Shown one piece after another: positions 1,788-43,465 of a DNA stretch of 64,000 nucleotides (its first letter is position 1; each line of letters opens with the position of its first letter). Origin of the DNA: Chiloscyllium plagiosum (lineage: Eukaryota); the NCBI RefSeq assembly GCF_004010195.1, contig NC_057755.1, forward strand, positions 1,105,306-1,169,305, read 5' to 3'. The notes under the pieces were generated by a model, which did no database searches, was not told where the DNA came from, and saw nothing but the letters and a program-made list of their open reading frames with translations. Made by a program: the position numbers and the translations under genes.

Positions 1788-1930
1788 GGTGGCACAGTAG
1801 CTCAATGGCGAGCCTTGCCGCCTCACAGGGCCAGCGCATTGGTTTGGGTGGGATGCCATTTGCAGGGTCGCTATGGACTCGATGGGCTAATTGGCTTGCT
1901 TCCTACATTGGAAGTATTCTATGATTTTAT
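1788..1930 (+). mobile_element. Degenerate, internally deleted HE1/V-SINE
   Basis: Head ggtggcacagtagctcaatggcgagccttgccgcctcacag and tail ggactcgatgggctaa...attctatgatt resemble the SINE at 39100. Confidence 0.55.
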
Positions 1931-2129
1931 CCCACACGTATTTTCCAATGTTTGCTGTTGACCGATTGAGATTTGTGTCATCCAATAAATGTCAGTTCTA
2001 AAAATACTCTGTGACAACTGTCACTTATTTGTGCAAAGGTTTAAATAAATCAATTGAACCACATTGTAATGTACCTGTCAGCAGGCATAAATAAAAGGCT
2101 TTGAGTATGTATCACATCGGCATTGAGTA

Positions 2130-2231
2130 CAGAGAAATTTCCTGCACAAAGAGACTCAGATTTAAAAAAAACCTTCTCATTTGATCATGTGCGGACAATA
2201 TTATACACGACTGTAACAATTCCTGATAAGT
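2130..2231 (+). pseudogene. Remnant of GPCR exon 1 (copy A), splice donor mutated
   Basis: Reads HVRTILYTTVTIP-G then ataagt; homologous to the 5541 copy (TIP-G|gtaagt) and to intact exon 1 (VEKVYETILAVVGVP-G|gtaagt); TATA-like cataaataaaagg at 2086-2098; no in-frame ATG. Confidence 0.5.
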
Positions 2232-5200: not shown

Positions 5201-5540
5201 GTGGTTTTAAGAGTTGCTTCTTTTTTGAGGTATTTTAGACGTCAGAGCTGACTTCCAGAAAATACTGGAAGAGTAATTATTGTTTTATAAGATGGTGCAT
5301 TGTTTTGGAAGTATGGGGAAAAGAAAAACCAAACCACCACATTTTAAGAAAAGATGGAAACTGTGTGGGAGAGTTCACAGCACAGGAGCAGAAAAGTGAA
5401 TAGTTTTTAAGTGTAATCTTGCTGATATTTTTGGGGATCTGCAATAGCGAGTGAATTGGTTTCTTTATGGTTATAGGTTTTATTGAGTTCTGTCACTTGG
5501 TTAAAATGTCAAAATATAAAGATCGGCACTAAGTTAGCCT
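2215..5540 (+). repeat. Segmental repeat copy A (paralogous GPCR intron 5' part)
   Basis: Colinear, diverged similarity to 5550-9540, e.g. 2600 ctgaagttaacggttaacttggattatttctgtaa vs 6883 ctgaagtttatagttaacttggaagtatttctgtaa; 3430 atgatccatcaagctgg vs 7713 gtgatccatcaagctga. Confidence 0.85.
3700..4310 (+). mobile_element. Old CR1 LINE 3' fragment (paralogous copy at ~8000-8570)
   Basis: Decayed RT C-terminal motifs (xWSxP, KRFTNML) and a CR1-like 3' UTR. Confidence 0.55.
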
Positions 5541-5565
5541 CTTATTGGAACAATTCCTGGTAAGT
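5541..5565 (+). pseudogene. 3' remnant of GPCR exon 1 (copy B) with intact donor
   Basis: ctt att gga aca att cct g|gtaagt (LIGTIP, phase-1 donor at 5560), fused directly to a truncated CR1 5'UTR. Confidence 0.5.
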
Positions 5566-8500
5566 ACCTTGAAGAATTGAATTTGTGTGAATCTGTCTGA
5601 GAATTATCTGTACTTAAACTCTGAAATTAACATTGATACATTGCATGTTGAGGCCACCGTCACACAGCAGCAACCGATAAATGATTTAGTCTCACACTAT
5701 GGAGACTTTTTGGACAACCTATCTTGGCAGATTCTGAAATAATTGCGTGAGAAGCTGAACTTTCCATTCATAATTATTCATCTCTTCTTGGAACCTTTCA
5801 GAAATCCCTATTTCAACTGGCGATCACAGAAAGTTTTGACAGAATTAAGGAATGTAATTGTGTCTATGTCGTTTAAAGGTCGAACTCATGCATAAGTCGA
5901 ACCCTTACTTTTAGCCAAAAATTCTTGTATTCTTCATATATACTCAGGTCTACGTAAACCCTATTACATTGCATTATAAACCTCTCACAAAAGAAACTGC
6001 ATGCTTTCATAGACTTTGTTTAATGTTTCATTAAACAAAATCGCATTCATTCATGACTGGAACTCTATTCATCACTCCTTGTTTGTGATGTTGTGATTCA
6101 TTCATTCATTCACTCATCCATAACTCTACTTACTGCACTTGGTTTACTACAGCATTGTTTTATTCATTCATTCATTTAGAAAGGTATTAAGTCTATCGAT
6201 ACTTATCACACTTGGTTTGCTATACATCCAAAGGTTAATATCGTTAAAAAAATGTTCATTATTTTAATATTGTCATTGTTTCTGAATATAAGTGAGATAC
6301 ATTCGCTATATGCCGGTGTATCTTTAATTTGTTGACAAATTTGCTAATGTTGTTGACGTTCCTCACATATGAGAGTAAATGTAAATGAAATAGAAGAACT
6401 TGGCAGAAAAGTTCATGGCGCTTACACATTCAAAATTAAGTGAATGTTTCATTTTAACTGCACCATTATACCAGGCCATGAGCATATTAAATAGTGTGAT
6501 TTTACAGAAGTTCAATTAATCTTTGAAATGTTAAATATTCGTACTGGTCTCTTGCTTTTATGTGGTAATTACCTTTACCGTAATTCATTGCATTTTTCTT
6601 CTTTACCCGGGATTAGTTGTGCCATCAAATCACTTTTGATGATAATACGGTACATCTAACTGTAACAGAAATTTCAGCCCCTCAAAGCTTGTGCCCATCA
6701 ATTCGTCGATCCTCTAAATTGAACTTTTAAAAATAGTCTGAAACATTCAACCAATATATAAGTATATACGATAGTCACTTTTCAAAAATATGAACGATGG
6801 TATTTTATGAAGAGAGTGCAATAACATGCTGGGCGAGTTGGTTTTGGTTTTTGAGTAAATAAGTGGCGGGGTTCACTGTACTTCTGAAGTTTATAGTTAA
6901 CTTGGAAGTATTTCTGTAACTACAGCAGTTTTTTTAAAAAGAACTGCTGTTGAAGTCTGGCTGTAGGCTGAATGGTTTTGTGCAAGAATGAACTGTTCTT
7001 CATTTTTTTACAGGTTGCAACCCAGCATTGTATTAAAGGAGTTTCAAAGATTTGTTGGAGACTTTTGAAATTTGAGAGTGAGGAAAAAAAATTGACCGAG
7101 AAACTTATAGTTTCAGTTTTATCATTTTTGTCATTTCTTTTCGTCCTTTTAAGACTTGGTACTGAGTGTCTGTATCGATCTGTGCTGATGAGAAGTGAAT
7201 GAGCGAGTTCGTCAATCACATTACCTTGGAGTGAACATGTTGTGTTGATCCCAAACTGAAGTGTTTGGATTTTTTTTTTAAAAGCTCTGAAGTGAATACT
7301 TACAGCCGAGTATATTGACCCGAAGCTGTGTGGTAGCTCCTGGAAGAAATTTACTGCAGTTCCAGTTTAAAACTAGCTGTCACAATTGTATACATAAATG
7401 TTCGATACAGAGAATCTGGTGTGAATTTTACACAGTGTGCATTTTCTTTGGAATGGCACTGGGAGTGGTGTAATACCTAAAAGTCATTTTATTTCATTTC
7501 GTTTAACATTGTTTTGAGATTAATGAGATTATACATTTACTCCGTGTTCAATGTCTTTGAGTCTGTGTTATAAGTATATCGTTTGACTTATTCTATTTTA
7601 TCATCATTTGGTTTGTAACAAACTTCCGTCTTGTTATGGAAGCAATACTTGCAGCTTTTTGTATTTACAGTTCAGCAAGAGATCACTTTGTTAGAACAAA
7701 AGAAATAAGCTTGTGATCCATCAAGCTGAATTTCTGTCTGGGGTTTGACTTATTCTGGAATTAATCACCTGGTATCGGAACAGACGTGAGGCTATGAAAC
7801 AAATAGTCTAACAGCTGAGAAACTAATAAACTAACCCCTCACTTCAACCAGACTTCGCCCAACTATACTCTTTGAGATTCATTATATGCCTCAGACCGTG
7901 ATCTAAAATCTACACTGAGATGTAATTCAATATTATACCTCCAACATTTACTCCTCTTTCACACTGCACCAGACCCGACTCAGAACCTTCCCTCATTCCC
8001 TGCCAGACCTGTAATAATAGAACTACATGAGACACTAGATGGCTCAAAGCTGTGGTTTTGTGCACAGTACTGGTCATCACCTCATAGTAAGGACAGTTTT
8101 TCTCTGAGGAGAGACTAAAAGGGATTTATAAGAATGTTGCCAGTGTGTGGAAATTCCTGTAGTATCGAAGAAAGATGGATAAGGTCATTTTGTCTTGAAC
8201 AGAGCAGAATGAGAGGTGATGTGATTGAGGTATCCACACTATTCAGGGTCTTGAATGGAGACTTGCAACACAGAACTCAGGATACCTTTACCAGGAGACA
8301 GAGTGAAAAAAGTTGATGGAAGGATTATAAGGGACATGAAGACGAAGCCTTTTATTCATTGTGTGTCCGGAATTCACTTCCAATTTTGGTTTGTGTGTGA
8401 GGCAAAGCAGAACACATTTAAAGGGAACCTGAATCTGCACCTGAAATGAGGTAACCTTCAAAACCTGTGGGCCAGGTGTTGGAAAGTCGGATCAGAACAG

Positions 8501-9540
8501 GAGCTAGTTTATTCAATTGATGGAGACATGAATAAGCGCTTTCAGTTCCTTAACTTTCCTGCAGTTCTACGGGATTCCAGAAAGACTGAGGAGTGTTAAA
8601 CTGAATTCATTTGGTGGGCTGAATGGCCTATTTCTGTGTTTTACGTTTCCAGCAAGTATCATTGGAACATTGTGCAGAGGTAAAGTGCATTCCAGAGGGT
8701 TGTGACTACCCTTCGGTTTTCCCCTGAAGAAATGTCTGCAGATTCATTTTTTTTTTATCATGCACAAAGTAATTGTTACAGGGACAAATAATTGTAACGA
8801 AGATTGGAGCATGCAAATTTATGAATTTGATCATTAGATTAATATTGCTAATTTGCTAAATCACTGTCATCATAAAATGTAAAGTCTTTCTTTTAAAGAA
8901 GGGAAGTGAAGTATTTTACTATGAACTTCTGTATATTTAGATGATCAGTTCCAAGATTAGTTGCCCCTGACATAATCAGAACACAACAGAGAGTTGTACA
9001 TGTATTGCAGCAGCCATGTTCAATAATTGACCTGTTCAGTTTTGAAGTATGTAGTTTATTCATAAAATATCAATGAGCACATTAAAAAGAATTATTTGAG
9101 TCAGACAGTGTAGAGATTGCAGTAGAAATGTCACATTTCCCTATTTTAATTTTGCATTCGAACAACAGCTCTTTGAAAAGGTGGAAGAGACACAAAGGCA
9201 GGCACCACATGCTCAGGGACAGAGAGAGAAAGAAACATACACTCCTGTCTGACGCAGCAGTGCTGCACAGCTGCTGCCTTTGCTGTCTGAGTTCATGCAT
9301 TTCTGGGCATCAGAGTGCACCTGGGAAAAAGGAACAAACAGCTGAGCTTAAAGGAATCTATGTGGGAGAGCTCACAGCACGGGAGCAGATAAGAGCATAG
9401 TTTTTAAATTTTATCTTACTGACTTCTTTTTTTGTAAGTCTACAGTAGTTAGTAGGGTGAGCTTTCTTTGGTTGTATGTTTATTGATATACGTCTCTTGA
9501 CTAAAATTTTAAAATATAAAACACAGGCACTAAGTTAGCC
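5550..9540 (+). repeat. Segmental repeat copy B (carries an extra ~900 bp insertion)
   Basis: Same order of old LTR-like, CR1 3' and CR1 5'UTR fragments as copy A; continues into the CR1 at 9300. Confidence 0.85.
5865..6775. mobile_element. Decayed non-autonomous DNA transposon (Tc1/mariner, pogo/Tc2-like)
   Basis: Present in copy B and absent from copy A; ends resemble Tc2/pogo-type termini (gtcgaactcatgcataagtcgaaccc ... agtatatacgata); AT-rich; no ORF. Confidence 0.45.
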
Positions 9541-10949
9541 TGGAATAGTGTGTTTTAGAGCGGTAGTACTCTATAATTTTCTGAGTCGAGAGATTGTTAA
9601 GGTGTAAAGAACATCCTTCATAGAGTGATCAGCCTTTCCTGTCAGATGCGGGAGATTCAGGAGAGTTTCCAAATGACTGATGATTAAGTGTGTTTGCCTA
9701 CGAATTCTATCAAATCGCATAAATCAACTGGAGCAGTAGTTAGAGACAATGAGGAAAATATACAGCTGGAGTGTGTGCTGGATATCAGCTACAGTAACAG
9801 AGAAAAGTCACAGATGCAGTTAGGTTAGCTCCAGAAAAGATAGGGGAGGAAGGCAGGTCGTGCATGAGTCTTTTGTTGATATCACCATCTCAAACAAGTA
9901 TGCTGTTTTTGAAAATTTAAGGGGTGGTAGACTCTCAGGGGAATGTAGCATGAATAACCAGGTTTCATGTACCGAAACTGGCTCGAATGTAACGAGGGGT
10001 ACGTCAGGTTCCAAACAATCAGATGTGATTGGGAACTTTCTAGTCAGAGGCATAGACAGAAGTTTCTGCGGCCGACAGCGAGAAATTAGAATGGAGCGTT
10101 GTCTCCATGGTGAAGGGGGCAAGGATCTCTCAGAGAGAGCGTAGAATATTCTCAAATGAGAGTGCGACCAGCAGGAAGTTTTTGTACACATTGGCACTAA
10201 TGACACTGGAAAAAAGGATGAGATTCTAAAGGAAGAATACTGAAAGTTAAGCAGGAATTCAAATGGATGTCTTCAAGGGTAGTAATACAGTATCTGGAAT
10301 ATTGGAATCTCTTCTGGGGTAGAAGTGACCGGTATAAGATGGACGGAATGCACCTAAATAGAAAAGGGACAAATTTACTGGCAGTAAGATTAACCAGAGT
10401 TGCTCAGGAAATTTTAAACCAATGAGGTCGGTGTAAGGGGCGTGGGGTTGGAGTGGTAGGGAGGGGTGAGTGGTCGCAGGGACCCTGGGAGACAGTGAGG
10501 AAAGAGATCAGTCTCAGATCGTTACTATTGGGAATAGGAGAAAGCCAAATAGTCATGACAGGCAGGAACAATCAAAGAACGAGGTAGGACTGATACATTA
10601 AATTGCATTTATTTCCATAAAACATGCCGAACAGGGAAGGCAGATGAACTGGGGGCATGGTTCGGAGCATGGGACTGGGATGTCATAGCAATTACACAGA
10701 TATGTTTCAGGTATTGACAGGACAGGAAGCTTGAAGATGTAGGATAGAAATCCTGTAGGAAAGGAAGAAAGGGAGACAAGAGAAGAGGGGGAGTTACGTT
10801 ATTTGATAAAGGATAACATAATGGATGCACGAAGAGAGAGTATTACTGGAAACACATCCAGGCAGGATGTTTGGGTGGAACTGAGAATGAATAGAGGGAT
10901 GATCACCTTATAGTGATTGTACTATTAAAAAAATCGCATAGTAAGTGGG
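9340..10949 (+). mobile_element. CR1 LINE 5' part: 5'UTR, ORF1 (SGNH esterase), start of ORF2 endonuclease; decayed
   Basis: ORF1 motifs ISNKYAVF, VIGNFLVRGIDRSFCG, VHIGTND; APE start GKADELGAW..WDWDVIAIT; many stops. Confidence 0.85.
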
Positions 10950-12765: not shown

Positions 12766-14147
12766 GATTTGGAGATGCCGGTGTTGGACTGGGGTGTACA
12801 AAGTTAAGAATCACACAACACCAACTTATAGTCCAACAGGTTTAATTGGAAGCACTAGATGTCAGAGCGCCGCTCCTTCATCAGGTGGTTGTGGAGGCCA
12901 CAATTGTAAGGCACAGAATTTATAGCAAAAATTTACAGTGTGATGTACCTGAAATTATACATTGAGAAAAATCTTGATTGTCTACTGAGTCTTTCACCTG
13001 TTCGAATACCATGATAGTTTCACTTGTTTCATGTGTAAATCACAAAACCTTTTTTTAAAAGTTGCATTCTCAGGTTAGCTGTAAGGATTGGTGTTAGCTA
13101 GACAATATGTTGAAGGTGTTAGCCCCCTGTGTGCTCTGTCTATGCCATGATGTTTATATTAATTATAATCTAAAAAGTGAGATAACAGAGATTTACATGA
13201 ATTCATGCAGTTTTTGAGAAAAGCACAATGTAATTCTACAAGTACGAACTCACCCCACAAAATATACGTATATGTGTGCATGTGTGTGTGTCTGGGTTGG
13301 GGGGCTGTGAGAGAGAGTGGATATGTGTGTATGTGAGTGTAGAGTGTCTTAAGTCTGTGAGGAGGTGCATGTGTGAGTGTGAGAGTGTGTGTGTGTCTGG
13401 GGTGAGGGATTGTGAGTGTCTATGAGAGAGAGTGCATATGTATGTGTGTGAGTGTAGAGTGGTCTAAGTCTCTGAGAGGATGCATGACAGACACTGTGTT
13501 TCTCTGCGTGGTCTGTGTTGTAGGTTGACTTGAGCGGGTTTGTGATCCGCAATCCTTTTGGGATCTTTCCTGCTTGCGTGCATTTCTGTAGAAACTTGAT
13601 GTTTGTGTCGATATGTGCAATCTTCTTGGAGATCCTCTCCACTTTAAGCCGGCAATTAGTGGTGTTGGTAGACATGACAGACACTTGCAAACCCCCACCC
13701 CAGGCACACACACACCCTCCCACACTCACACATGCACCCCTTCACAGATTTAAGACACTCTACACTCACATATGCACTCTGTCTCACACTCACAACCCCC
13801 CAAACCAGACACACACACATACACACAAACTACATGAATTCATGTAAAACTCTATTATCTCACTTTTTAGATTAGAATCAATACAAATATCATGGTTTAG
13901 ACAATAAAACACAGGGGACTAACACCTTCAACATATTGTCCAGCTAACACCAATTATTACAGCTAACCTGAGAATGCAACTTTAAAAATAAAGTTTTGTT
14001 ATTTTCACATGAAAGAAACGAAACTATCATGGTATTCGAACAGATGAAAGCCTCAATAGAAAATCAAGGTATTTTTCAATGTATAATTTCAAATATATCA
14101 CACTGTAAATTTTTGCTAAAAATTCTGTGCCTTACAATTGTGGCCTC

Positions 14148-14228
14148 CACAACCACCTGATGAAGGAGCGGCTCTCTGAAATGTAGTGCTTCCAATTAAA
14201 TGAGTTGGACTATAATCTGGTGTTGTGT
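14148..14228 (+). ncRNA. Hammerhead ribozyme-like motif in PLE pseudo-LTR
   Basis: cacCTGATGAaggagcggctctctGAAA followed by a tccaa..ttgga stem; homologs at 12810-12895 (-; GAAA->GACA) and 17605-17685 (+; CAGACGA). Stem I/III topology not resolved. Confidence 0.6.
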
Positions 14229-14275
14229 GATTCTTAACTTTGTGCACCCTAGTCCAACACCGTCATCTCCAAATC

Positions 14276-16909
14276 ATGTTTACTATCGGCACCACTAACT
14301 GCCGTCTTAAAGTGGAGAGAATCTTCAAGAAGACCACAGACATCAAGTTTCCACACAAATGCAGGCAAGCAGGAAAGATCCCAAAAGGATTACGGATCAT
14401 GAACCCGCTCAAGTCAACCTACAACAAAGACTACGCAGAGAAACTTTGCCACCTCACCTCTCGCAAACTCCTCAATCATCTCATGCACCAACTCTGCAGC
14501 AGGCGCCACAACCTTGAAATTCACATGCAGTCCACACTCTCAGCCTGCCCTTAGGATACAGCAGTACAATTGTGCGACATTGCTAAACTGACAAGGCGAC
14601 AAAACTACACCACTTACATGCGCACCTAGAACAAAAAACTGGAGAAACTTGGAATTCTCACCAGTAATACCAAAACCCACTCAGGGACTACAGTAGACAA
14701 CATTATCACTGTGGAGAAGTTTATTATCAACTTATTGGACCACATCCCTCCACCAGAAGACATTGAAGTCCTGAGCAGGGGTCTCAACTTCTGGCCCACC
14801 ACCAAAATGGACTCCTTAGTTCTTGCAGCAGACACGGAGGAGTTCATCAGACGAGTGAGACTCCAGGAATTCTTTCAAGGTGCCAGCAGTGATCCCAATG
14901 AACCACTAATGAACTGGAACTGTCATCAAAGGGATCTGTAGAGGAGTGACAAAAGAAGGTGTCAATTTGGACTCCACCGGAGGTCCGCTGCCTTGGGCTT
15001 GACATGTATGCTCAAACTGTCAGGAAATATATAAATGCCAGATTCATCAGCTGTAACCACAAGGGAGAGCAAAACATTATCCGTTCACAACGCAATGCCA
15101 TCCAGACCCTCAAAGCCAATCACAACATTGTCATCAAACCAGCAGATAAAGGAGGAGCCATTGTCATTCAGAATAGAACAGATTACTGCAAGGAAGTGTA
15201 CGGACAACTGAACATCCAGGAACACTATAGGCAACTACCAGCTGATCCGACCAAAGGACACACGCGTGAATTAAACACATTGATCAGGACTTTAGATCCA
15301 GTCCTTCAGAGTTCCCTACGCTCCCTCATCCCAACGTACTTCTCGTGTAGGTGACTTCTATTGCCTTCCAAAGATACACAAAGCCAATACACCAGGACCT
15401 ACGTATCAGGCAATGGGACTTTGTATGAGAATCTCTCCAGGTATATTTAAGGTATCTTGAAACGCATTGTACAGGAGATGCCCAGCTTCTGTCGCAACAC
15501 TACGGATTTCTTACAGAAAATCAGCACCCACGGACCAGTCGAACGAGGAACATTCCTCGTCACAATGGATGTTTCAGCACTCTACACCAGCATCCCCCAC
15601 AATGATGGCATCGCTACAACAGCCTCAGTACTCAACACCAACAACTGCCAATCTCCAAATACCATCCTACAACTCTACTGCTTTATCCTCGATCACAACG
15701 TCTTTACCTTTGACAGCTAGTTCTTCATCCAGACACATGGAATAGCCATGGGGAGCAAATTTGCACTCCAATATGCCAACATCTTCATGCACAGGTTCGA
15801 ACAAGTCTTCTTCTCTACGCAGGATCTCCAACCAACATTATACACCAGGCACATTGACGACATTTTCTTCCTCTGGTCCCATGGCGAGGAGTCACTGATA
15901 AAACTACATAGTGATATCAACTTTTTCATCCCACAATAAAACTCACCATGGACTACTCTCGACTATCTATCTCATTCTTGGACACATGCATTTCCATCAA
16001 AGATGGATACCTCAGAACCACACTCAATCGCAAACCCACAGACAACCTCACAATGCTACACTTCTCCAGCTTCCACCCAAAACATATTAAAACAGCTATC
16101 CCCTATGGACAAGCCCTATGTGTACACCGGATCTGCTCAGATGAGGAGGAACGTGACGGGCACCTGAAAATAATCAGGGATACCCTTATAAGAACGGGGC
16201 ATGATGCGCAATTCATCAACCACCAGTTCCAATGTGGCACAGCAAGGAACTGTAATGACCTCCTCAGGAGACAGACACGTGCTGCAACTGATAATGTACC
16301 CTTCGTTGTTCAGTGCTTCCCACGAGCTGAAAAATTACACCATGTTCTTCGTGACCTGCAACACATTATCAATGAGGATGAGCACCTCCCCACACCTCCA
16401 CTGTTCGCCTTTAAACAACGGCCAAAGCTCAAACAGATCATGGTTCGTAGCGAAGTTGCCCAGCTTTCAGGACAACTCCATACAACCCTGTCATGATAGG
16501 CGCTGCAAGACGTGTCAGTTTGTGGACATGGACACCACCAATTCACATGGGGACACCTCCCACCATGTACGTGGCAGGTACTCATGTGACTCAGCCAACG
16601 TTGTCTATCTTATTACATTGCAGGTAAGGATGCCCTGAGGCATGGTACATTGGCGAAACCGAGCAAAGGCTACGGCAACAAATGAATGGGCACTGCACAA
16701 CAATCAACAGACAGGAGTGTTCCCTCCCAATTGGGGAACACTTCAGTGGTCCAGGACATTCGACCCCGGACCTTCGGGTGACCATCCTCGAAGGCGGACT
16801 TAGGGACATTCAGCAGAGAAAAATGGCCGAGCAAAGGCTGATAGGTAAGTTCCATTCCCATAGGGAGAAGCTCAACAGGGACCTTGGGTTCATGTCACAC
16901 TACTGGTGA
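14276..16909 (+). pseudogene. PLE reverse transcriptase + GIY-YIG endonuclease ORF, disrupted
   Basis: IKPADKGGAIVI, LVTMDVSALYTSIPH, GIAMGSKFALQYANIFM, YTRHIDDIF, HPKHIKTAIPYGQAL; Cys linker PCHDRRCKTC; YSCDSANVVYLI..AWYIGETEQRLR; ends LNRDLGFMSHYW*; several stops and frameshifts. Confidence 0.92.
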
Positions 16910-17696
16910 CAACCATTGCACTATACACACACATACAGACATACACACATATACACAGCCACGCACACAGACAATCACTCACATCCTTACAGACACACAC
17001 ACTCCCACTCATACATGCAACCTCTCAGAGACTTAGACCACTCTACACTCACGAACACACCTATACACTCTCTCCCACAGACACTCACAACACCCACCCC
17101 AGGCACACACACACACTCCCACACTCACACATGCACCCCTTCACAGACTTAAGACACTTTACACTCACATACCCTGTCTCCCACACTCACATCCCCCAAC
17201 CTAGACACACACATAGACGCACAAAGACCCACGTGCACACATATACATATAGTTTGTGGGGTGAATTTGTACTTGCAGAGATACGTTGTGCTTTACTCAA
17301 AAACTGCATGAATTTATGTAAAACTCTGTTTGACTCACTTTTAAGATTAGAATCAATCTAAACATCATGGCATAGACAGAGAACACCTTCAACATATTGT
17401 CTAGCTAACACCAATTGTTACAGCTAACCTGAGAATGTAAATTTAAAATAACGTTTTGAGATTTACACATGAAAGAAGTGGCATCATGGTATTCGAACAG
17501 ATGAAAGACTCAACACCCAAACAATGCATTTTTAAATGTATAATTTCAGTTGCATCTCACTGTAAATCTTTGCGATAATTTTTGAGCCTTACAATTGTGC
17601 CCTCCACAACCACCAGACGAAAGATCGGCACTTCGAAAGCTAGTACTTCCAATTAAATCTGTTGGACTATAACCTGGTGTCGTGTGATTCGTATCT

Positions 17697-22332: not shown

Positions 22333-23199
22333 TTAATTTCCTAGTGATTTTGATCCTTGCAGGAGGAACGTGTGTTCTTTCTAACTGCACAACGCGCTGC
22401 CTGTTGGCTATGGTAATGTTGGATCTACTGTTCATTTTCACGAAGAACATAATGTGGCAACTCAAATTCTTTTATTTCCCAAGGTGTTTCTGGACCTAAC
22501 CCCTGTGTGCAGATATGTCGTTGTCCTGGTCAGTGCAGCCATAGACTGTACCATTTAAATCACTGTCCTTTTGTACGTTGATCTTTTTGTGGCCATTTGC
22601 TGCCTGAAAATGAAGATAAAATATTGGACAGAGAAAACCTTGGCTGTGATTCTCGCGACAACTGGCATGCTGCTCTGTTCAAAAAATACCCACTTCTATT
22701 TTTGGTTTCAACCAGTGAAGATAATTGAAAATAATCCGTGGTTGTGCCGAACAAAGTCAAGTTGTTTTACTGATGGCTGGGATTTACGTGCGTTAATATC
22801 ATTTTAACCACTTTCATCCCATTCGTGTTAATTCTGTTGATGAATACTCTGACGGTCAGGTACATTTTAATGGACAGTCGAGTCCGCAAGAGCCTGAGGG
22901 GTCAGAGGAAAGGAGAGAGTCACAAAGACGCAGATATGGAGAGCCAGAGGAAGTCGGTGATTTCCCTCTTCTACATATCCATCAGCTTCATTCTTCTGTC
23001 GGTAATGTATGGTGCAAACATCTTATACTTTGGCAGTAAAGGAATGAATGTTGCAAAGTACAAATGTCTAGCTGATTTTAAATCCGTCCAAGAAACGCTG
23101 AAGGATTTCAGCTGCAGTACTTACACATTATTTTATGCAGTATCTCTGTCCAAGTTCAAAGCGAAGTTCAGGAATGCGGTGCACCAACTGGTAACGTAA
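22333..23199 (+). pseudogene. Class A GPCR (shark GPR139-like family) exon 2 pseudogene
   Basis: Acceptor ctctttcag|tt; VNFLVILILAGGTCVLSNCTTRCLLAM..DLL colinear with 36511-37397; 1-bp deletion ~22491, TAA at 22556, DRF->DLF, second frameshift ~22780-22805. Confidence 0.9.
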
Positions 23200-26419: not shown

Positions 26420-28385
26420 AAACTTCCTCTGGACCACCTCCAATACCAGCGCAATATTCCTTCAATACGGAGTACAAAACTGCTCACAATATTCCAAACG
26501 CAGTCTGACCAGAGCCTTATCCAGCGTCAGCAGTATGTCTCTGCTCTTGTACTCTAGCTGTCTTTAAATGAATGCTAACATTGCATTTGCTACCTGTTAT
26601 GAAGTTGTGTAGATTACTCTTGAAGTGGAAGGCAGGAAATCAAATTTGTTTATAAAAATGATAGGAAGAATGAGTGTGTGCTCCCTTTAAGAGGTAAAGT
26701 GTTTTTTTCTAAGCTTAGATATTTATCCGGAAAAATGCATCTGTAAGCCGCTGTACATTACAGACCGTTCTGACATTGAAACACATATCAATTGGCTGTA
26801 ACTAGAAACCTTAGGCGTGTCTTGATGTTAAGGCAACCAGCTTGAATGCTAGCCAATCAATTTAAACCAGGGCCTAGATACTAAAATCCAATTAAATTTA
26901 AATCTGATGATTTGACTACCTCAAGCCAGTCCAATTGTAAAGAAATTACTAGATCATCCAGGATATAAAAGAAGAGGGCATTTGAGAGAGCCAACTGCTA
27001 GCTGAAGAAGTAACAACTTTCAGATCTCAGAGAAAGCCCCATAAATCCATAAAAGGTACCATGACAAGTTTATCTAATATTCCAGACAAACGAAATTGCA
27101 GACAAGACGCCCCTGAAAGCGGAATCAGTGGAAGAAAGGTATTTTTGACTAGAGATCAGAAGAGAGACTGAGATACAGTGGAGTAGGCAGAACATTTTGA
27201 AAGACCCATTCTCTGTGAACTTTGAGAGACTCTGTTTGAATTTATTGGTTCTTATTACTTAGATTTATATAGATGGGAGCAGTTTTTATTGGAGCAGCAT
27301 ACCGTTGGAATTTCATTCAGTTATGGAATAGTTACTAATTAGGGGGAATTGTTCAGTTTGTTTTTAATTCTGTTAATTTGTTCGTTGTTAGATGCAAATA
27401 AATAAATTGTGACTTGTTACTTATAAAATTACTATCAGGGAATTATTTCATTTAACCACACTTTTAACAGATTATGAGAGGCAAGGCGAGCTTCTCTGGA
27501 GGTTTTGCATGTAATTATTAGAAGAAAATCTCTACTCCCACAAAAGCAGATTGGAATTTGTGGTCCGGTCTAATTATCAGAGGTGATCGACCAGTTCGCC
27601 GTTGTCGTACATCCTAACTGCCAACTGAACCTGCACATTCACCTGAAGAAAATCCTATGCAAGGACTCCTAAGTCGCTTGAGTGCTTCAGGTTTCCAAAG
27701 GCTTTCCATCACAAGAAAATAGTCTGCAACTCTATTCTTCTGACCCAAGTTCAGGAACTCGCGCTTGCAACATCGTATTCCATTTGCCAGTTGTTTGCTC
27801 ACTCTCGCAGTCTGTCCGAGTCTTTTTCAGTCGCTGTCCTACCCCAACGCAATATTTTACTCCAACAATCTTTGCATCATGTGAAAACTTTGCAACAATT
27901 TCCTCCATCATCCAGATCATTAATGTATAACGTGAATACTTGTGGTCCCAAACGAATCTCTGAGGAATTCCATTAGTAGCCAGTTACCAAACTGAAAAAG
28001 ACCCCATTATTGCCTTCTGCCCGTCAGCTAACCTTGCCACTAATACAAGGGGCTTTTATCTGATTTAGCAGCCTCCTATAAGGGCCTACTTCATTAACTG
28101 CTGTAGCTTTGCCTTGCGTTTTCTGTGTTTTGTGCACGATTACTATTAGTCGGTTGTGTTGCAGCATTCTTCAGCTTTTCCCTTTTAAAATAATATTCTC
28201 CTCTTTTATCCTATCTTCTAAAACGAACAACTTCATATTTTCCCAAGTTAAATTGACAACCTTTTGCTCACTTACTTAACCTATCAAAATCTCTCTGTAA
28301 ACTGTCTATCTCCCAACTTGCCTTCCCATCTATTTTTGTCCCATCTGCAAATCTGGCTACAGTGCGTTTGTTTCCTTACTCAATC
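26420..28385 (-). mobile_element. Decayed CR1 fragments interrupted by a solo LTR
   Basis: CR1 RT-like sequence on both sides of 26595-27611 (ttgcatttgc..|..tcctaactgcc); VAKFSHDAKI motif. Confidence 0.7.
26595..27611 (+). mobile_element. Solo LTR (~1.0 kb)
   Basis: TG...CA ends; CCAAT boxes ~26853-26935; TATA ggatataaaag 26961; aataaa ~27397-27406; cleanly splits a CR1. Confidence 0.7.
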
Positions 28386-28429
28386 ATTCAAATGCACAGT
28401 ATTGCATGTCTAATACAATATGTATGATA

Positions 28430-28900
28430 TATACTATGCACTGTTGTAAAGAGCTGTTTGCGTATAAATATTGTTTTGCATTGGAACTGATCCTGTTTGC
28501 ATGTAAATACTCGTCTGCATTGGAACCATTTGTGTTTATTAATAAATATTGTTTTGGATGGGAACTCTTTGTTTCAAAATATAAATATTGTTGTGTTTGG
28601 GAATTGTTCATGTTTATTTTTATATCCTGGTTTGTTTTCGAGCTTTTCCCGCTTTTTCATAAATATTTTTGTGTCTTGGAAACGTTACAGATGATAAATA
28701 AATATTGCCATGAATTGGTGCTAAGCATGTTAATATATGAAACATCGTGCTTTGGGAGTGTTTATGTGTCATGTATTGGAACTGTTCGTGTTTATGTGTA
28801 CTGTTCTGTAATGGAACTGTTCATGTTTGTAAATAAATATTGTTGTGTATTGGAGGTGCTCCTGTTTATATGTAAACATCAGTGTGTGTTGAAGCTGTGC
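28430..28900. repeat. Diverged 39-bp minisatellite
   Basis: Units such as ttgttttgcattggaactgatcctgtttgcatgtaaata repeated roughly 12 times. Confidence 0.8.
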
Positions 28901-29119
28901 CTGTCTCCAAATCATGAGCAAAACTGTATCTGACAATATGCTGTGAATGCTGACTTCCTCCTGTGCTTTGGGATGGATCTGCAATCCCAGTGCCTGCTGA
29001 AGGGGCAGCTGCACAGAACAACCGGTCACGTGTTAGCGGTTATGGGGAGTAAATAGGCAGACACCTGATTACTCATTATATATTCAGGGAACAATAACTG
29101 AAGAGCATCGGGCAAGAGA

Positions 29120-29420
29120 TAGAGTTAAGTATAGATAGAGAGGGGGGTTAAAGATTGTAATATACAAATAATTCACGAACGAATAATGTGGAGTTAAATT
29201 GATAATAATAAGGAGAGGGTTAAATAGAAAGTAATGGGAAAAGGATTAAATACAAGGGAACAAGGAGAGGGTTAAATACGGGAGAAGAGGATGGAACTTA
29301 ATACAAAGGGGAGAGGTGTAAAGGGAGAGGAAGAGAAAGAAGATTGAAAACAATGGAGCAAGGAAAGTGTTAAAGAGCGGGGAAAGGGAGCTGATTTAAT
29401 TCAAAGTAATAGGAGAGATA
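29120..29420. repeat. Purine-rich degenerate tandem repeat
   Basis: Recurring ggagagggttaaata motif. Confidence 0.6.
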
Positions 29421-33239: not shown

Positions 33240-33253
33240 TAAATAAAATAAAA
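33240..33253 (+). promoter_or_regulatory. TATA-like AT box upstream of GPCR exon 1
   Basis: taaataaaataaaa about 100 bp before the ATG; a similar box precedes the exon-1 remnant at 2086. Confidence 0.3.
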
Positions 33254-33349: not shown

Positions 33350-33416
33350 ATGCATCTTCTCAGGGAAAAGGTCGAAAAGGTGTATGAGACCATCCTTGCT
33401 GTTGTTGGTGTTCCTG
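33350..33416 (+). CDS. Class A GPCR (shark 'probable GPR139'-like family), coding exon 1
   Basis: aaaATG start, MHLLREKVEKVYETILAVVGVP-G, canonical phase-1 donor gtaagt at 33417; splices in frame to 36511. Confidence 0.85.
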
Positions 33417-33804
33417 GTAAGTCTTGTAATAACTTAGCTTGTATAAATTTCTGCATTTAATCATCCTTCTGTCTATGATTGATCTCTGCATTTAATTATA
33501 CTTACTTCTATCTGAGACTGCGAAACCCTTTATTTCCACTTAACAAGATAAATCCCCATGTCAGACAATAGTCTGCTCACTCACTGAGTTTAAAGCAATC
33601 AGTTTGTCAATTACAAGACTCCTCAGTCGTGTGAAGCATTGTCTGTTTCTCTAAACTGTGCTGAATGGGTTTACACTGAGGCCACATTGTTGAGGTTTAA
33701 CTGAGCACAAGCACTGACTTGTTCTAGGAAAGGTTCAGCAAGACCACCTTCTCTCTCGTTCTCTCTCTCTCTTTAGTAGCTCAAAGCCTGCTATCCACCA
33801 GATG

Positions 33805-33903
33805 TACAAAGTTAAAAATCATACAACACCAGGTTATAGCCCAACAGATTTATTGGAAAGCACCAGCTTTTGGAACGCTGCTCGTTCAGGTGGTTGCCAA
33901 ATC
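33805..33903 (-). mobile_element. Short PLE pseudo-LTR end fragment with degenerate hammerhead core
   Basis: Matches 12797-12892; flanked by a 12-bp near-TSD atcca(c/t)cagatg at 33793-33804 and 33904-33915. Confidence 0.75.
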
Positions 33904-33919
33904 ATCCATCAGATGGCTT

Positions 33920-35330
33920 TTCATAAAGGTCTATCGCTCAGTGACATCTGGGGCAGCCCATTCCTTTATGCGAAGGTATTATTTTGGCGAACTTTGCTTA
34001 GTCAGCTTGCTCCAAATGGGATCCCAGATGCAACTTGGGCAAGGGGTGAGATGAGCAGCTCGTCATGTGGTGATAAGTGAACATCAGCACAGAATGGTTG
34101 CACCTGCGTCTTGTTTTCGTCAGTCACTGGATGTGTCGGTGGGGGTGATATTTGTGATGACTCATCGTGGGGAGGTGTGTTGAGCACAGTGTCAAACTTG
34201 TTGCATTGTTGAATTATTTGATTGGCAAAGAGATGTGTGAGTTTTGTCATTTGTAAGAAGGGGCACTATTTTGTGATGCAGACTTTAGTCAGTCCAACAC
34301 TGAGACCTGGAATTGTGCAGCAGCAGCTTCCCCACAGAAGGTCAAGCAACTTTGTCCAACAGGCAGTTTACCACCTTGTCCTTCATTGCCGCTGTTTTTC
34401 ATGTTCCTCGAATGATAATGGCCCATGTGCAGTTTCTCCTATTGGCATTCTTTTGGGATTGTTGTTTTGTCTTTGGTGATCAGTTTATGTATACAGCTAT
34501 TAGTCTCTGATGCCAAGCTGTGATACAATTCTGATCATCTCTATGGAGAATGTCGTTCCATCTATGGAGATTTCTAGCCCCAAATAGCTCTGAGTTGGAA
34601 ACCTCTGTTGACAAAGAGAGCAGCTTGGGAGCGTGAGCCTAGACATCAGGAAGGCAGCTTTGTTTAACCTCAGATAAAGTGTCAGACTTCTAAGCCAGAA
34701 AGTTTCAATGACAAATGCTGTGTCGATTCGGATTTTGTTTAGGTGGTGACTGTGGGGTAGTGTTGGGCATGTGGGAGGAGCTGTGCCCAGTCTTGAAGAT
34801 CATCCAATTGCGGTGGGCATCCAACCTGCAATATGGTAATTGGATTCACTACTGAATGTTTTCATGGTTCAAATCATCAGGATAGTCAATCCTGTACATG
34901 AGGGAGAGACTCAACGCTCGATCATTTATTCATCCATATTGTGGAAAGTATCCATTCCTGAACACTGTGGAGTGATTCAGTGTTCTGTACTGTTCTTTAT
35001 ATCGCATGGATATACAATTCTGCAGGCAAATTGAATTGTGGAGGCCCTGAAACCAACTACAGAAATGTTGCAAGTAATGCCTGTGTAAGGTGTCTCCTAT
35101 CCCTTATTGTACTGATCCCATGTGTCTTGATGTTAGTGCAGGTATCTTATGGGAAACTCCAGCAGGTCTGAGTAATCTGTACAGCAGGTGAAATCAACTG
35201 CTGCCAAAACCAATAAAAAAGTAGTAGATGACTCTGTTTCTGTCAACAAGCCGCTGCGCATATTTTTCTCTACGTCTTTTAAAAGTTGCAAATGATACAC
35301 TTAGAGAGAGTTTACTGCTGTACTACAAAT
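33920..35330 (-). mobile_element. Possible ancient LINE remnant (Ingi/I-like endonuclease region)
   Basis: Weak motifs on the minus strand (DLQDWA, LLPHAQHYP resembling FPxSQHRP); heavily decayed. Confidence 0.25.
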
Positions 35331-35419
35331 TCTTTAAACTTTATGTGACATGAAACAACGATTATCTTTCTGCCATACTTATAACCTGGTACAGACACGG
35401 ACAACGTTTGATCAGTAAC

Positions 35420-36480
35420 TTCTAGGATACAGAACTGGCTCATAGGTAGAAGACAAAGGGTGGTGGTGGAGTGTTGTTCTTCAGACTGGAGGCCTGTAAC
35501 TAGTGGAGTGCCACAAGAATTGGTGTTGGTGCTGTACGTTTTGTTCATTTACATAAATTATTTGAATGCGAGCATAAGAAGTACAGTTAGGAAGTTTGCA
35601 GATGGCACCAAAATTGGAGATATAGTTGACAGCGAAGAGGATCATGACCAGATGAGTCAATGGGCTGAGAAATGGCAAGTGGAGTTTAATTCAGATAAAC
35701 GTGAGGTGCTGCATTTTGGGAAAGCAAATCTCAGCAGGACTTATACACTTAATGGTTATGTCCTAGGGAGTGTTGTTGAACAAGGACACCTAGGAGTGCA
35801 GGTTCATAGCTCCTTGAAAGTGGAGCCACAGGTAGATAGGAGAGTGAAGGAGGCGTTTGATATGCTTTCCTTTATTGGTCAGAGTATTGAGTACAGGAGT
35901 TGAGAAGTCATGTTGCGGCTGTACATGATATGGGTTAGGCCACTGTTGGAATATTGTGTGCAATTCTGGTCTCCTTCCTATATTGTGAAACTTGAAAGGG
36001 TTCAGAAAAGATTTATAAGGATGTTGCCAGGGTTGAAGGATTTGAGCGATAGGGAGAGGTTGAACAGGCTGGGGCTGTATTCCCTGAAGCGTCGGAGGCA
36101 GAGGGGTGGTCTTATAGAGATTTACAAAATTACGTGGGGCACAGATAGGGTAAATAAGCAAAGTCTTTTTCCTGTGGTTGGGGAGTCCAGTACGAGAGTG
36201 CATGGGTTTAGGGTGAGAGGGGAAAGATATAAAAGTGACCTACGGGGTAACTTTTTCACACAGGCAGTGGTGTGTGTATGGAATGAGCCAGAGGAAGTGG
36301 TGGAGGCTGGTACAATGGCAATATTTAAGAGGCATTTGGATGTGTATATGAATAGGAAGGGTTTGGAGGGATATGGGTCAGGTGCTGGCAGGTGGGATTA
36401 GATCATCTTGGGATATCTGTTCGGCATGGATGGGTTGGACTGAATGGTCTGTTTCCATGCTGTACATCTCTATGACTCTG
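35420..36480 (+). mobile_element. CR1 LINE 3' end in the GPCR intron
   Basis: VTSGVPQ, KFADGTK, LEYCVQFWSP, FFTQAVVCVWN; ctctatgactc tail ends about 30 bp before the exon-2 acceptor. Confidence 0.93.
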
Positions 36481-36510
36481 TCTCTTTTTTTCCTTTCTCT
36501 CCTCCTACAG

Positions 36511-37397
36511 TTAGTCTAGTGGTGATTGTAATTCTAGCTCGGGGCAAGTGCGGTCTTTCTAACTGCATCACTCGCCATCTTCTGGCCATGGCAGCTTCTG
36601 ATCTACTGTTCACTGTTTTTAACATCGTACTTCGACGATTTGCGTATTACTATTATCCAAAGTGTTTCCTGGACGTCACTCCTGTTTGTAGTGTTACCTA
36701 CGTCCTGAGCTGGTTGACCATTGATTGTTCTGTCTGGTTCACTGTTGCTTTATCTTTTGATCGATTTGTCGCCATTTCATTTCATCAGATAAAATCTCAG
36801 TATTGCACAGAGAAAACTGTAACAATTGTTCTCGCAACAATCTGCATTTTCTTTTGTTTAAAGAACGTTCCCAACTATTTTCGATTTAAACCTGGAATGA
36901 TCAGCAACAATGTTCCATGGTACTGTTCTACCACGTCCTGGTATTATAACGATTCTCGCTGGGCAAGTTTTAAATATTTTGAAAAACTTTTAACACCATT
37001 TCTCCCATTCACTTTTATTCTCATTATCAATATTCTGACTGTCAGATATATATTTAAGGCCACGAAGATTCGAGAGGGGCTGAGGGGACAGAGGAAAATT
37101 GAAAATGACCCAGAGGTAGAGAGCAGAAAGAAATCAGTGGTTTTACTCTTTGCCATATCTTCCAGTTTCATTCTTCTCTGGTTGGTGTATATTTTGTATT
37201 TCTTTCATGCTAGTTATTCCTTGGATCCTGATACTCTTGATCTCCTTCGAATAATGGCATATATGCTACAAAAGTTAAGTTGCTGCACAAATGCTTTTAT
37301 TTATGTGGTCACCCAGAAAAAGTTCAGAGACCAATTAAAGTGTGCAGTGAAATATCCAGTTATAAAAATTATTGAATTGGTTAATAAATCCAAGTAA
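36511..37397 (+). CDS. Class A GPCR (shark 'probable GPR139'-like family), coding exon 2; spliced protein 317 aa
   Basis: Polypyrimidine tract + cag acceptor; open frame with seven hydrophobic segments: ARGKCGLS, LLAMAASDLL (TM2), PVC, SVWFTVALSFDRFVAI (TM3), PWYC, PFLPF (TM5), FILLW (TM6), CCTNAFIY (TM7), KKFR helix 8; stop 37395-37397. Confidence 0.93.
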
Positions 37398-37841
37398 CTG
37401 TGGAGTCAACGTTAGCTGCAGCAGATAATGAAATAAGGAGTTCACGTAAGGAATGGACCGAAAGGAGGAGGACTAGAAACATGATAACACTCCGTACCTA
37501 TTAGGCGAGGAATGACTCCATCTGAGTAGCAAAATGAAAGATACAGCAGGAGCAGAGCAGTTTACAATGCTATTCACAACGAGCAGCTGTTGGTAGGAAG
37601 CTGAACCAACAAAAACAAAACCAAAAGAGGAATTATACAGGTACAAAAGCTACCTTGGTTCCAAGCCATCAGTTCTCAGCGAACAAAGTGGGTAAAAGGA
37701 AAAATGACCTGGAGGAAAGCATTATCATTCACTGCAGATCAGAATGGGAAATACAATCACACGATCCTGTCTGTTCTTCCTCAACCAACTGTCTGATCCA
37801 TACATCTGGACAAATTAAAAACAAAAGTTTCTATTACAAAG

Positions 37842-37901
37842 AATAAATTATATCCAGGAAAGATTCTGTGTCTTGAGTGTAAATTTATTTTCAACAATAA
37901 A
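37842..37901 (+). terminator. Candidate polyadenylation signals of the GPCR gene
   Basis: AATAAA at 37842-37847 and 37896-37901, followed by T/GT-rich sequence. Confidence 0.45.
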
Positions 37902-38084
37902 TAAGCTTGTTTCCATTCAATTCAGTGACATCAATCGTTTCTTTATTTATTCCATTTCACAACCCAGCTGGTGCAATAGCAGGAGAATCCAAACCCAACC
38001 AGAGACACTTCTGGACTCCTTCTCTGCACCCTCCCAATGACCCAGCTCGCTCTCTAATTTAAGATGCTCCTTCAAATTGACTTG

Positions 38085-40764: not shown

Positions 40765-43465
40765 AATGTATTTCTGCACAACATCGAGGATCACAGCATC
40801 ACAACATCACAGCTACAGAAGGTTGTATCACAGCTCCAGAAACGAAGGTTGTATCACAGCTACAGAAACGAACGTTGTTGAGGAAGGTTTGTCTACTGAG
40901 TCATTATGGTTAGAAGTGAGGAATAGCAAGGGAACGACCACCGCATTATAGGTTTTCTGCAGACCACCTAATAGCAGTAAAGAGATTGAAGAACTCACAG
41001 GCGGGCAAACTCTCGGAAAATACACAAGTAGCAAGGTTGTTGTTATGGGTGATTTCAACTTTCCCAATATCGACTGGAACCTCCCTAGTGCAGATGATTT
41101 GGATGTAGCCGATTTTGTCAAGTGTGTTCAGGAGGGTTTCCTTACTCAGTATGTGGACAGACCGACGAGGGGAGAAGCCATTTTGGAGTTGGTGCTTAGC
41201 AATGAGCCAGGACAGGTGTCAGATCATGCGGTGGAAGAACACTTTGTTGACAATGATCACAACTGCCTCACATTTACCATAGTCTTGGAGAGGGAAAGGA
41301 GCAGTTACCGAGGGAAGATACTTAATTGGGGAAAAGGAAATTATGACGTTATCAGATAGGAGTTGGGAAGTACAGGCTGGGAGCAAATGTTCCACAGAAA
41401 GGGCACAGCAGACATGTGGAGATTATTTAAGGAACATTAATTGCGAGCGAAGCACGAATGTGTTCCTCTGAGACAGGTAAGAGGGGCTAAAATTAAGAAA
41501 CCTTGAATGACGAGAACAGAGGAGCATCTCGTCAAAAGGAAGAAGACAGCTTAAGTACAGTGGAGGAAGTAAAGATCTAGCACAGCTTTGGAGGATTACA
41601 GACTTGCTAGAAATGAGCTCAGAAATGGACTGAGGAGACCCAGTAGCAGACCAGACAAACGTTTGGCAAGAAAGATTATGGAGAACCCAAAGGCATTTTA
41701 CTCATGCGTGAGGAATAAGAAAATGATCAGGGAGAAGGTAGGGCCGATCACGGTTAGTGGAGGGAACTTTTGCGTGGAGTCTGAGCTCATAGGCTAAGCT
41801 CTAAATGAGTTTTTTTGCTTCGGTTTTCACCAAGGAAAGGGATTTTGTTATCAATAAAAACTTTGAGGAGCTGGGACACGGGCTTGATCAGATCAAGATT
41901 GATGAAGTTGATGTGCTGGAAAGTTTGGAAAACATTAAGATTGTTAAGTACCCAGGGCCAGACTAGATTTATTCTGGGCAGCTCAGGGAAACGAGAAAGA
42001 AGTTTGCTAAGCCAATGGCGAGGATCTATGCCTCCTCATGCCCCACGGAGTCGTCCTGGAGGACTGGAAGGAGGCGAATGTTACTCCTCTTTTCAAGAAA
42101 GATAATATAGCTTCTTTTCAAGAAGTCTCTGGCAATTGCAGACCAGTCAGTCGTACATCTGTGGTCAGCAAAGTTTTGGAAAGAATTCTGAGGGATTTAT
42201 GACTATTGGGCAAAGCACTGTGTGATTAAAGGCAGTTAGCATTACGTTGTAAGGAGCAGGACATGCCTCACAAATTTATTGATCTCTTTGATAATGTGAC
42301 AAGACAGATCGACGAAGGTCGAGCAATGAATGTGATGTATATGGACTTTGGCAAGGCATTTGATAGGGTTCCCCATGATAGGCTCATTCATAAAGTCGGG
42401 AAGTATGGGATACAGAGAGATTTGGCAATCTGGATTCAGAATTGGCTGGTTGATAGAAGGCAGAGAGTGTTGTGGATAGAAAGTATTCTGCCTGGAGGTA
42501 AGTCTTGAGCGGGGTCCTGCAGGGCTCTGTTCGTGGGCCTCTGCTCTTTGTAGATTATGTAAATGACTTGGATGAGGATTTTCAGGGATGGGTTAATAAA
42601 TTTGCAGATGACACAAAGGTTGGAGGTGTCGACGTTAGTATCGAGGGCTACTGCAGGCTGCAGCACCACATTGACAGGATGCAGAGTGGGCTGAAAAATG
42701 GCAGATGGAGCTCAACCTAGATAAATGCAAAGTCGAACTCAAATGTTGAATATAAGTCAGGATTCTTGGCAGTGTAGGGAACGGAGGGATCGAGGTGTGC
42801 AAGTACATAGATCCCTCAAAGACGCCACCCAAGTGGACAGGGTTGTTTAAAAAGCATGTGGTGTTTTGGCTTTCTTTTATTAACAGGGGGATCGAGTTTA
42901 AGAGCTGCGAGGTTTTGCTACAGCTCTACAAGTCCCTGGTGAGACCACACTTGGAATACTGCGTCCAGTTCTGGTCACCCTACTATAGGAAAAATACAGA
43001 GGCTTTGGTGATGGTGCAAACAAGGTTGGCCAGGGTGCTGCCTGGACTGGATGGCTTGCTTTATGAAGAGACATTGAATAAGCTCGGACCTTTCTCTCTG
43101 AGACAAGGAGGAAGAGAGGACATCTGATCGAGCTATACAAGATAATGAGTGGAATAGATAGAGTCAATAGGCAGAGACTTTTTCCCAGGGTAGGATCGAC
43201 TGGTACGAAGGGTCATAGTTTGAAGATATTAGGAGGACGACATAAAGGAGAAGTCAGACCTGGGTTCTTTATGCAGAGAGTTCTAAATGCATGGAATACG
43301 TTGCCAGCTGTAGTGGTGGAAGTAGAGTCATTAGGGACATTCAAGCTATTGCTGGACATGCACATGGATAGCAGTGAGTTGAGGGGTGCGTAGGTTAGGT
43401 TATTAGATTTTACATCATGGGACAAAGGGCTTGTTCTATGCTCTACGTTTCTATGCTGTATGTTC
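40765..43465 (+). mobile_element. 5'-truncated CR1 LINE (APE + RT), decayed
   Basis: MGDFNFPNIDW, YVDRPTRGEAIL, NPKAFYS, YMDFGKAFDRVPH, KFADDTK, LEYCVQFWSPYY; short duplications at the 5' junction. Confidence 0.93.

Follow-up and report, generated by a model that had tools for sequence, protein, structure and literature searches.

The 64,000-nucleotide stretch of Chiloscyllium plagiosum DNA analysed here (contig NC_057755.1, positions 1,105,306 to 1,169,305; hereafter the window) carries on its forward strand an intact two-exon gene for a 317-residue G protein-coupled receptor (GPCR). The gene belongs to a family expanded in cartilaginous fishes, whose members, as judged from their aligned sequences, combine divergent predicted ligand pockets with a conserved signalling face. 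We tentatively favour the reading, and hold it to be close to an even call, that this family is a repertoire sensing external chemicals.

Coding exon 1 (33350-33416; 22 codons plus 1 nt) encodes the short N-terminus and the first half of transmembrane helix (TM) 1 and ends at a GT donor. It is joined across a phase-1 intron of 3094 nt (33417-36510; GT donor and AG acceptor, by splice-site reading) to coding exon 2 (36511-37397), which follows a pyrimidine tract and AG and encodes the rest of TM1 to helix 8 and the stop codon. The spliced open reading frame (ORF) of 954 nt comprises 317 codons plus the stop codon. Exon 1 was the sole match of a family exon-1 hidden Markov model (HMM) in the window (21.6 bits), and a G-V-P closes the exon-1 segment of homologues at the same point as in the window gene. 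Exon 2 matched Pfam 7tm_1 (PF00001) with an E value of 9e-19 (68.4 bits; cut-off 30.5), and a family HMM gave 417 bits on one tile, at this exon. AlphaFold models exon 2 as a helical bundle with a mean pLDDT (predicted local distance difference test) of 71, and its best fold-search matches are class A GPCRs; this search did not tell peptide-type class A receptors apart for the model. The ESM Atlas matches were generic 7tm_1 and srw-type clusters only, at 0.94-0.96. In the remote searches exon 2 alone was scored (294 of the 317 residues), and the N-terminus was compared locally. Contigs of the public sequencing run X1, which is possibly the window's own source sample, are identical (0 differences) to 36993-37301 and 37338-37979. 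Like the family as a whole, the window gene retains D2.50, C3.25, the cysteine of extracellular loop (ECL) 2, D/R3.49-50, P5.50, W6.48, N7.49 and Y7.53; it is without P6.50 and P7.50 and has S instead of N1.50. By domain, fold and core activation residues the predicted product is a class A (rhodopsin-like) GPCR. Exon coordinates, splice sites, Pfam and fold model all agree with the two-exon, 317-residue seven-transmembrane receptor of the original prediction, and the features that it read from the protein (about 10 residues before TM1, DRF, LLWLV and NAFIY) are all present.

Of 2373 candidates in a protein search with exon 2, 1090 reached E<=0.001. The best 120 of these 1090 matches were all from sharks or a skate (45-71% identity), and nearly all were named 'probable GPR139'. 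Heterodontus francisci accounts for at least 69 sequence clusters among the 120 matches listed, and a single 74.5-Mb sequence carries 32 of these. The matches are clusters at 90% identity, among which there may be isoforms or near-identical copies (highest pairwise identity 0.99). These counts bear out the expansion that had been proposed from the window alone. An exhaustive search of 50%-identity representatives gave 100 matches at E<=1e-30, among which were many truncated family models. The 19 in-family representatives that were named or looked up came from sharks, rays and Callorhinchus wherever a species was shown, and one further short match carried no name. Named members were also found in Callorhinchus, Narcine, Hypanus, Amblyraja and Rhincodon. 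In run X1 the summed contig depth was 600-5700 in exon bins and 6-24 in unique intron bins; such depths do not measure copy number, but they agree with the presence of many paralogues in Chiloscyllium plagiosum as well. The best match, Stegostoma tigrinum P0001, has 71% identity, 317 residues and the same motifs, and is the nearest neighbour in both trees described below. It is named 'sex peptide receptor-like', and the database labels of the family are automatic and inconsistent ('probable GPR139', also 'capa receptor-like' and 'vasopressin V2 receptor-like'). Two entries, P0186 and P0175/P0288, have the family receptor fused to unrelated sequence (one sodium channel-like by name, one clustering with a RING-domain protein) and are probably annotation chimeras. 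We came across no account of the family in the literature searched; subscription papers or supplements may cover it, or its expression, under a different name, and the searched part of the whale-shark study supplements held no family match. The family and its amphibian sister, discussed next, appear to be undescribed, their proteins being already in RefSeq under automatic names.

The sequences suggest that the lineage is older than sharks and that only the expansion is chondrichthyan. A search with a salamander orphan protein (Pleurodeles XP_069092602.1, P0243) gave 25 matches, namely 20 amphibian clusters (one per species), one sturgeon sequence and four elasmobranch family members. In a 34-row tree, the chondrichthyan clade of chimaera, rays and sharks (96/93) was sister to the amphibian/sturgeon clade (100/99). 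A 101-row quick tree agreed with it, and the coelacanth/teleost pair and amphioxus fell outside. Two alternative groupings were rejected by the approximately unbiased (AU) test (p-AU about 0.001 each), and on this test the clade of Latimeria and Odontesthes (P0253) is not the one that pairs with the shark family (AU p 0.001); the groups for this test were named after the quick tree had been seen. Tree rows were hand-picked from 316 proteins, fragments being left out, and included no true GPR139 or GPR142. In the 101-row tree, 24 'chondrichthyan' rows were nameless when it was built, and 8 of them were later named as chondrichthyan. The phylogeny that had been called for, one with GPR139 and GPR142, was thus obtained in part: it recovers the chondrichthyan clade and its sister, and was built without those two receptors.

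The sister gene (Pleurodeles P0243, Xenopus P0296, Acipenser P0312) resembles the shark family in its short N-terminus, C3.25, W6.48, N5.58, lack of the TM7 proline and a similar motif in intracellular loop (ICL) 3, but differs in its invariant pocket, P6.50 (kept in 22/22), DRY and N2.50. With one cluster per species among the 20 amphibian matches it is apparently single-copy, and it is a candidate receptor for an endogenous ligand. These sequences (P0243, P0293-P0312) are labelled 'probable GPR139' yet are distinct, and no amniote or teleost was among the matches. Within the shark family, the window gene, Stegostoma P0001 and Chiloscyllium plagiosum P0125 form one group (support 100). Of 138 near-invariant sites, the three members of this carpet-shark group depart from consensus at 26, 25 and 23, the median being 4, and 10 departures are common to the window gene and the Stegostoma gene; on this comparison the window gene belongs to a fast-evolving carpet-shark subfamily. 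The idea of a shark-specific family therefore stands for the expansion, which looks chondrichthyan, but not for the lineage, which has members in chimaera and rays and a sister gene in amphibians and sturgeon. The motifs taken as non-canonical divide similarly. The proline-less NxxxY of TM7 and the short N-terminus, which is also found in amphibian and coelacanth relatives, are inherited from the wider clade, and NAFIY is no special anomaly because human GPR139 is also without the TM7 proline (NFFLY). Loss of the TM6 proline does mark most of the shark family: this residue is present in GPR139 and in 22/22 amphibian sequences but in only 7/37 divergent family members, and the three commonest residues at the position are V, M and I in Heterodontus and V, I and L in Pristiophorus.

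The relation to GPR139 is one of group rather than of gene. The window protein matched human GPR139 with 28.6 bits (E 1e-5), below GPR52, which it puts first among characterised matches when used alone; with the same program it scored 84.6 bits against the salamander orphan, 68.9 against a teleost, 67.0 against a coelacanth and 58.5 against an amphioxus protein. Searched against solved structures, the family profile placed GPR139 first with an E value of 2.4e-15, the next being 1.3e-8 (chemokine and angiotensin receptors, about 1e-8), and the best PDB match of amphibian P0243, of P0253 and of amphioxus P0280 was also GPR139. Because both the family profile and the outgroups match GPR139 best, all of them belong to a wider GPR139/142-like (MIP/SPR-related) group. 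Human GPR139 (PDB 7vug/9m42) shares with the family W6.48, N5.58 and the proline-less NxxxY; it differs in having D at 3.25, where the family has the C of the TM3-ECL2 cysteine pair, and in keeping P6.50, and its identity to the window gene in the fold alignment is 21-23%. Agonism at GPR139 is reported to need F3x33, H5x43, W6x48 and N7x38 (PMC5430874). The aligned residues of the window gene are W90, E180, W246 and Y273, so that one of the four is kept (W6.48). No GPR142 sequence was among the matches of any search; the nine most distant full-length matches were looked up and none was so named, three being nameless. A search with amphioxus P0263 for true GPR139/142 gave 10 matches, none of them vertebrate. 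Two additional GPR139/142-like subtypes, GPR210A and GPR210B, have been reported in coelacanth, gar and fishes (PMC6504862). Both are vertebrate orphans still to be characterised and share the wider group with the shark family, and the clade of Latimeria P0253 and Odontesthes P0251 may be one or the other of them. The accessible portion of that account mentions neither 'shark' nor 'cartilaginous' nor any expansion (PMC6504862). On these comparisons we conclude that the window gene is not GPR139, as the original prediction had supposed.

The pattern that sets the family apart lies in the predicted pocket. We placed 25 pocket positions, and among 69 Heterodontus paralogues their mean entropy was 1.76 bits, compared with 0.88 for other outer TM positions (p=1.5e-4), 0.29 for inner TM positions and 0.30-0.40 for ICL1-3. 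ECL1 (1.00 bits) and ECL2 (1.09 bits) were also below the pocket. The 22 amphibian sequences, at equal mean identity (0.77), showed the opposite, with a pocket entropy of 0.04 against 0.45 for outer TM. Pocket positions made up 13 of the 30 most variable positions (25/282 overall; p=3e-8). In paralogue pairs at 80-90% identity, 50% of pocket sites differed vs 15% elsewhere, and in amphibian pairs 1% differed vs 17% elsewhere. The contrast holds in 37 divergent family members (p=0.0025). This pattern fits a many-ligand repertoire with shared signalling.

We propose that one jawed-vertebrate orphan of the wider GPR139/142-like group gave rise to the family by expansion in cartilaginous fishes and would have been retained as a conserved gene in amphibians and sturgeon. 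The window gene is predicted to encode a functional class A GPCR of the expanded family. Each paralogue would bind a different ligand in its orthosteric pocket, and all may signal through one shared G protein, presumably of the Gq type by analogy to GPR139, for which Gq signalling is reported (PMC5863515). Different ligands per pocket together with a shared transducer would make the family work like a chemoreceptor repertoire. The ligands would most likely be external (peptides, amino-acid derivatives or conspecific cues), the receptors may be expressed in sensory cells of the nose, mouth, skin, gills or gut, and the family would evolve by birth and death. Many clustered paralogues together with pseudogenes were found in the family, two copies lying in the 64-kb window. 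Vertebrate OR, TAAR, V1R, V2R and T2R and nematode srw receptors likewise have clustered paralogues, pseudogenes, a variable pocket and a conserved coupling face, and the shark family is a lineage separate from the six vertebrate chemoreceptor families. The srw receptors are described as a birth-and-death family related to neuropeptide receptors and have been proposed to sense environmental peptides (PMC2576165).

Several observations speak against the proposal of an external chemosensory repertoire. The pocket variability could reflect relaxed constraint. The 25 positions (TM2, 3, 5, 6 and 7, TM4 being left out) were placed by conserved-motif anchors, and the list is what we take to be the class A convention. 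In 17 Pristiophorus paralogues the difference between pocket and other outer TM was not significant (p=0.087). The window gene itself departs from consensus at 26/138 near-invariant sites (other members, median 4 and maximum 23), and in simulations of 5% neutral nucleotide change (substitutions only) its open frame survived in 13%. A close relative in the same species, P0125/P0317 (LOC122548289), is modelled without 46 residues around TM6; it may be a damaged gene that gene prediction has patched into a model. In the catshark, only microvillous neurons are reported from the nose, which is V2R-dominated (PMC10116579), and, as far as the available part of one study goes, no GPCR is among the 50 most specific genes of a brain plus olfactory library (PMC11979771). 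Apart from these points, single-cell run X5 (tissue not stated, about 2% read) gave LINE (long interspersed nuclear element) reads, no read across the splice joint, and two exon-2 bins with mean depths of 0.3 and 0.25; single-cell run X6 (tissue not stated, 6% read) gave 0 reads on the window, and run X7 covered repeat bins only.

The strongest competitor, though on the sequences a doubtful one, is an innate-immune or tissue-sentinel repertoire, in which leukocytes, mast-like cells or barrier epithelia would detect microbial or parasite products. It would presumably work like FPR or MRGPR arrays, and it would show the same pocket hypervariability, clustering and pseudogenes. MAS1 and its relatives are reported missing from cartilaginous fishes (PMC8455134), so that another family may fill that niche. 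However, among solved structures the family profile matches GPR139 much better (E 2e-15) than it does chemokine and angiotensin receptors (about 1e-8), and the N-terminus would be too short for chemokine-type docking.

A largely neutral expansion is unlikely. Here unequal recombination in repeat-rich DNA would have multiplied the genes, constraint on folding and coupling would have been kept for a while, and pocket constraint would have been lost as copies needed no ligand or were redundant. The LINE-rich window without another recognised gene, its 71%-identical duplication of 2.3 kb, the pseudogene and the many truncated models among the family representatives are in keeping with this. Set against it are the entropy of the pocket (1.76, compared with 0.88 for outer TM, 1.00 for ECL1 and 1.09 for ECL2), the conserved ICLs and the presence of intact members across chimaera, rays and sharks.

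Slightly less probable still is the explanation that the receptors answer to reproductive, endocrine or neural peptides made by the shark itself and diversifying in their turn, as the neuropeptide-receptor ancestry of the GPR139/142-MIP group might suggest. The frozen pocket of the amphibian sister is as expected for one endogenous ligand, and the TM3-ECL2 cysteine pair of the family also favours it. We know of no matching expanded shark peptide family, which weighs against this explanation. A common origin is reported for GPR139/142 and the protostome receptors for MIP, FMRFamide and related peptides (PMC8514136); however, peptide receptor families are typically stable 1:1 orthologues (PMC2576165), unlike the shark family. 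Finally, a true GPR139 or GPR142 orthologue acting as an aromatic amino-acid receptor, which the 'probable GPR139' labels and the top structural match of the family profile would favour, can practically be dismissed in view of the low score to GPR139 relative to GPR52 and to the amphibian, teleost, coelacanth and amphioxus orphans and of the single agonist residue kept, GPR139 being reported as highly conserved across vertebrates (PMC12208981). On copy number and synteny, for which an orthologue should show a single copy in a conserved setting, the comparison gave many paralogues in other sharks and no recognised neighbour in the window.

The second copy in the window is a pseudogene exon 2 of the same family (22333-23199, + strand), with a retained AG acceptor, frameshifts near 22470-22500 and 22775 and an in-frame stop at 22556-22558. 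Its identity to the intact gene is 40-46% at the amino acid and 64% at the nucleotide level, and it has lost the core residues R3.50, W6.48 and N7.49. In the 101-row tree it does not pair with the intact gene as a sister, and outside repeats the two have only the coding exon in common. The exon 1 of the pseudogene was not found in the window; it might have been lost at a retroelement region (13350-17360), where broken ORFs resembling reverse transcriptase (RT), of a second retroelement type, lie upstream of the pseudogene. These ORFs had no Pfam match at E<=0.001, and we take them from their motifs to be Penelope-like.

The original prediction had also placed two exon-1 relics on the same strand. 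Six methods found chance-level matches only in the window: tblastn and blastn; motif and ungapped scans; an exon-1 HMM and position-specific scoring matrix (PSSM) built on an alignment of 65 N-termini (HMM, 21.6 bits for the real exon and 4.1 for the next match; PSSM 37 vs 6); nhmmer and Smith-Waterman (best 57.5 vs shuffled maxima of 47-60); a pattern count (22 matches vs 19.0 expected); and a search with 78 family exon-1 peptides. A donor look-alike at 5550-5565 was rejected as a relic, since it has a stop codon seven codons before it and does not score as a family member. Since the relics were not found, the window holds two copies and no array: a gene and an old, non-sister pseudogene, paralogues lying 10 kb apart. 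The claim of same-strand relatives thus holds for the pseudogene, and that of a local tandem array falls. A Pfam scan of the 142 window ORFs of at least 85 residues gave matches at E<=0.001 in seven, the receptor, the pseudogene and five pieces of LINE RT or endonuclease, and recognised no neighbouring gene in the 64 kb.

Around the receptor gene, motif scans gave a candidate TATA-like AT-rich element at 33240-33247 (+ strand), 110 nt 5' of the ATG, and two AATAAA sequences at 37842-37901 (+ strand) as candidate polyadenylation signals. The intron contains a LINE 3' fragment with RT-like ORFs (35400-36479, + strand), which is 73-78% identical to other window copies, has very high repeat depth with loose ends at 36479 and stops about 30 nt before the acceptor. 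Its 3' end leaves only the pyrimidine tract before exon 2 and might interfere with the branch point. A decayed 26-bp purine-rich tandem repeat (29120-29420) lies some 4 kb upstream of exon 1, with LINE pieces between; a second 26-bp tandem repeat at 40790-40878 looks unrelated to it. A decayed 39-bp tandem repeat at 28454-28900 has 10 copies with 61-77% identity to the reference, and the 210-codon open frame enclosing it (28301-28930) had no Pfam match. A segment duplicated in tandem (2492-5540 and 6784-9541, about 4.3 kb apart; 71-75% identity over 2.3 kb plus shorter blocks) had no coding match.

Birth-and-death GPCR repertoires are already known, and the interest here lies in the family and not in the single copy of the window. 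Of all vertebrates, cartilaginous fishes are reported to have the fewest olfactory genes (mean 43.8, range 20-62; PMC10869828), and a relative paucity of GPCRs is reported for them (PMC8455134). Set beside 20-62 olfactory genes per genome are the at least 69 Heterodontus clusters among the 120 matches listed. Surveys of chemoreceptors mine only the known receptor families, and therefore a family labelled GPR139 would be missed; the same label on family models can mislead comparative studies. The amphibian/sturgeon sister gene offers a fixed-pocket reference for finding the ancestral ligand. Whether sensory or immune, the family is a candidate for the missing ligand-discrimination capacity in sharks. 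It is conceivable, and we put this forward with reserve, that a seventh chemoreceptor family of vertebrates exists in cartilaginous fishes. It would derive from a GPR139-like orphan, would have been masked by an incorrect automatic label and, in certain sharks, would outnumber all known olfactory genes. If so, sparse expression in sensory cells would be expected, and it could no longer be held that sharks give up chemical discrimination in exchange for sensitivity.

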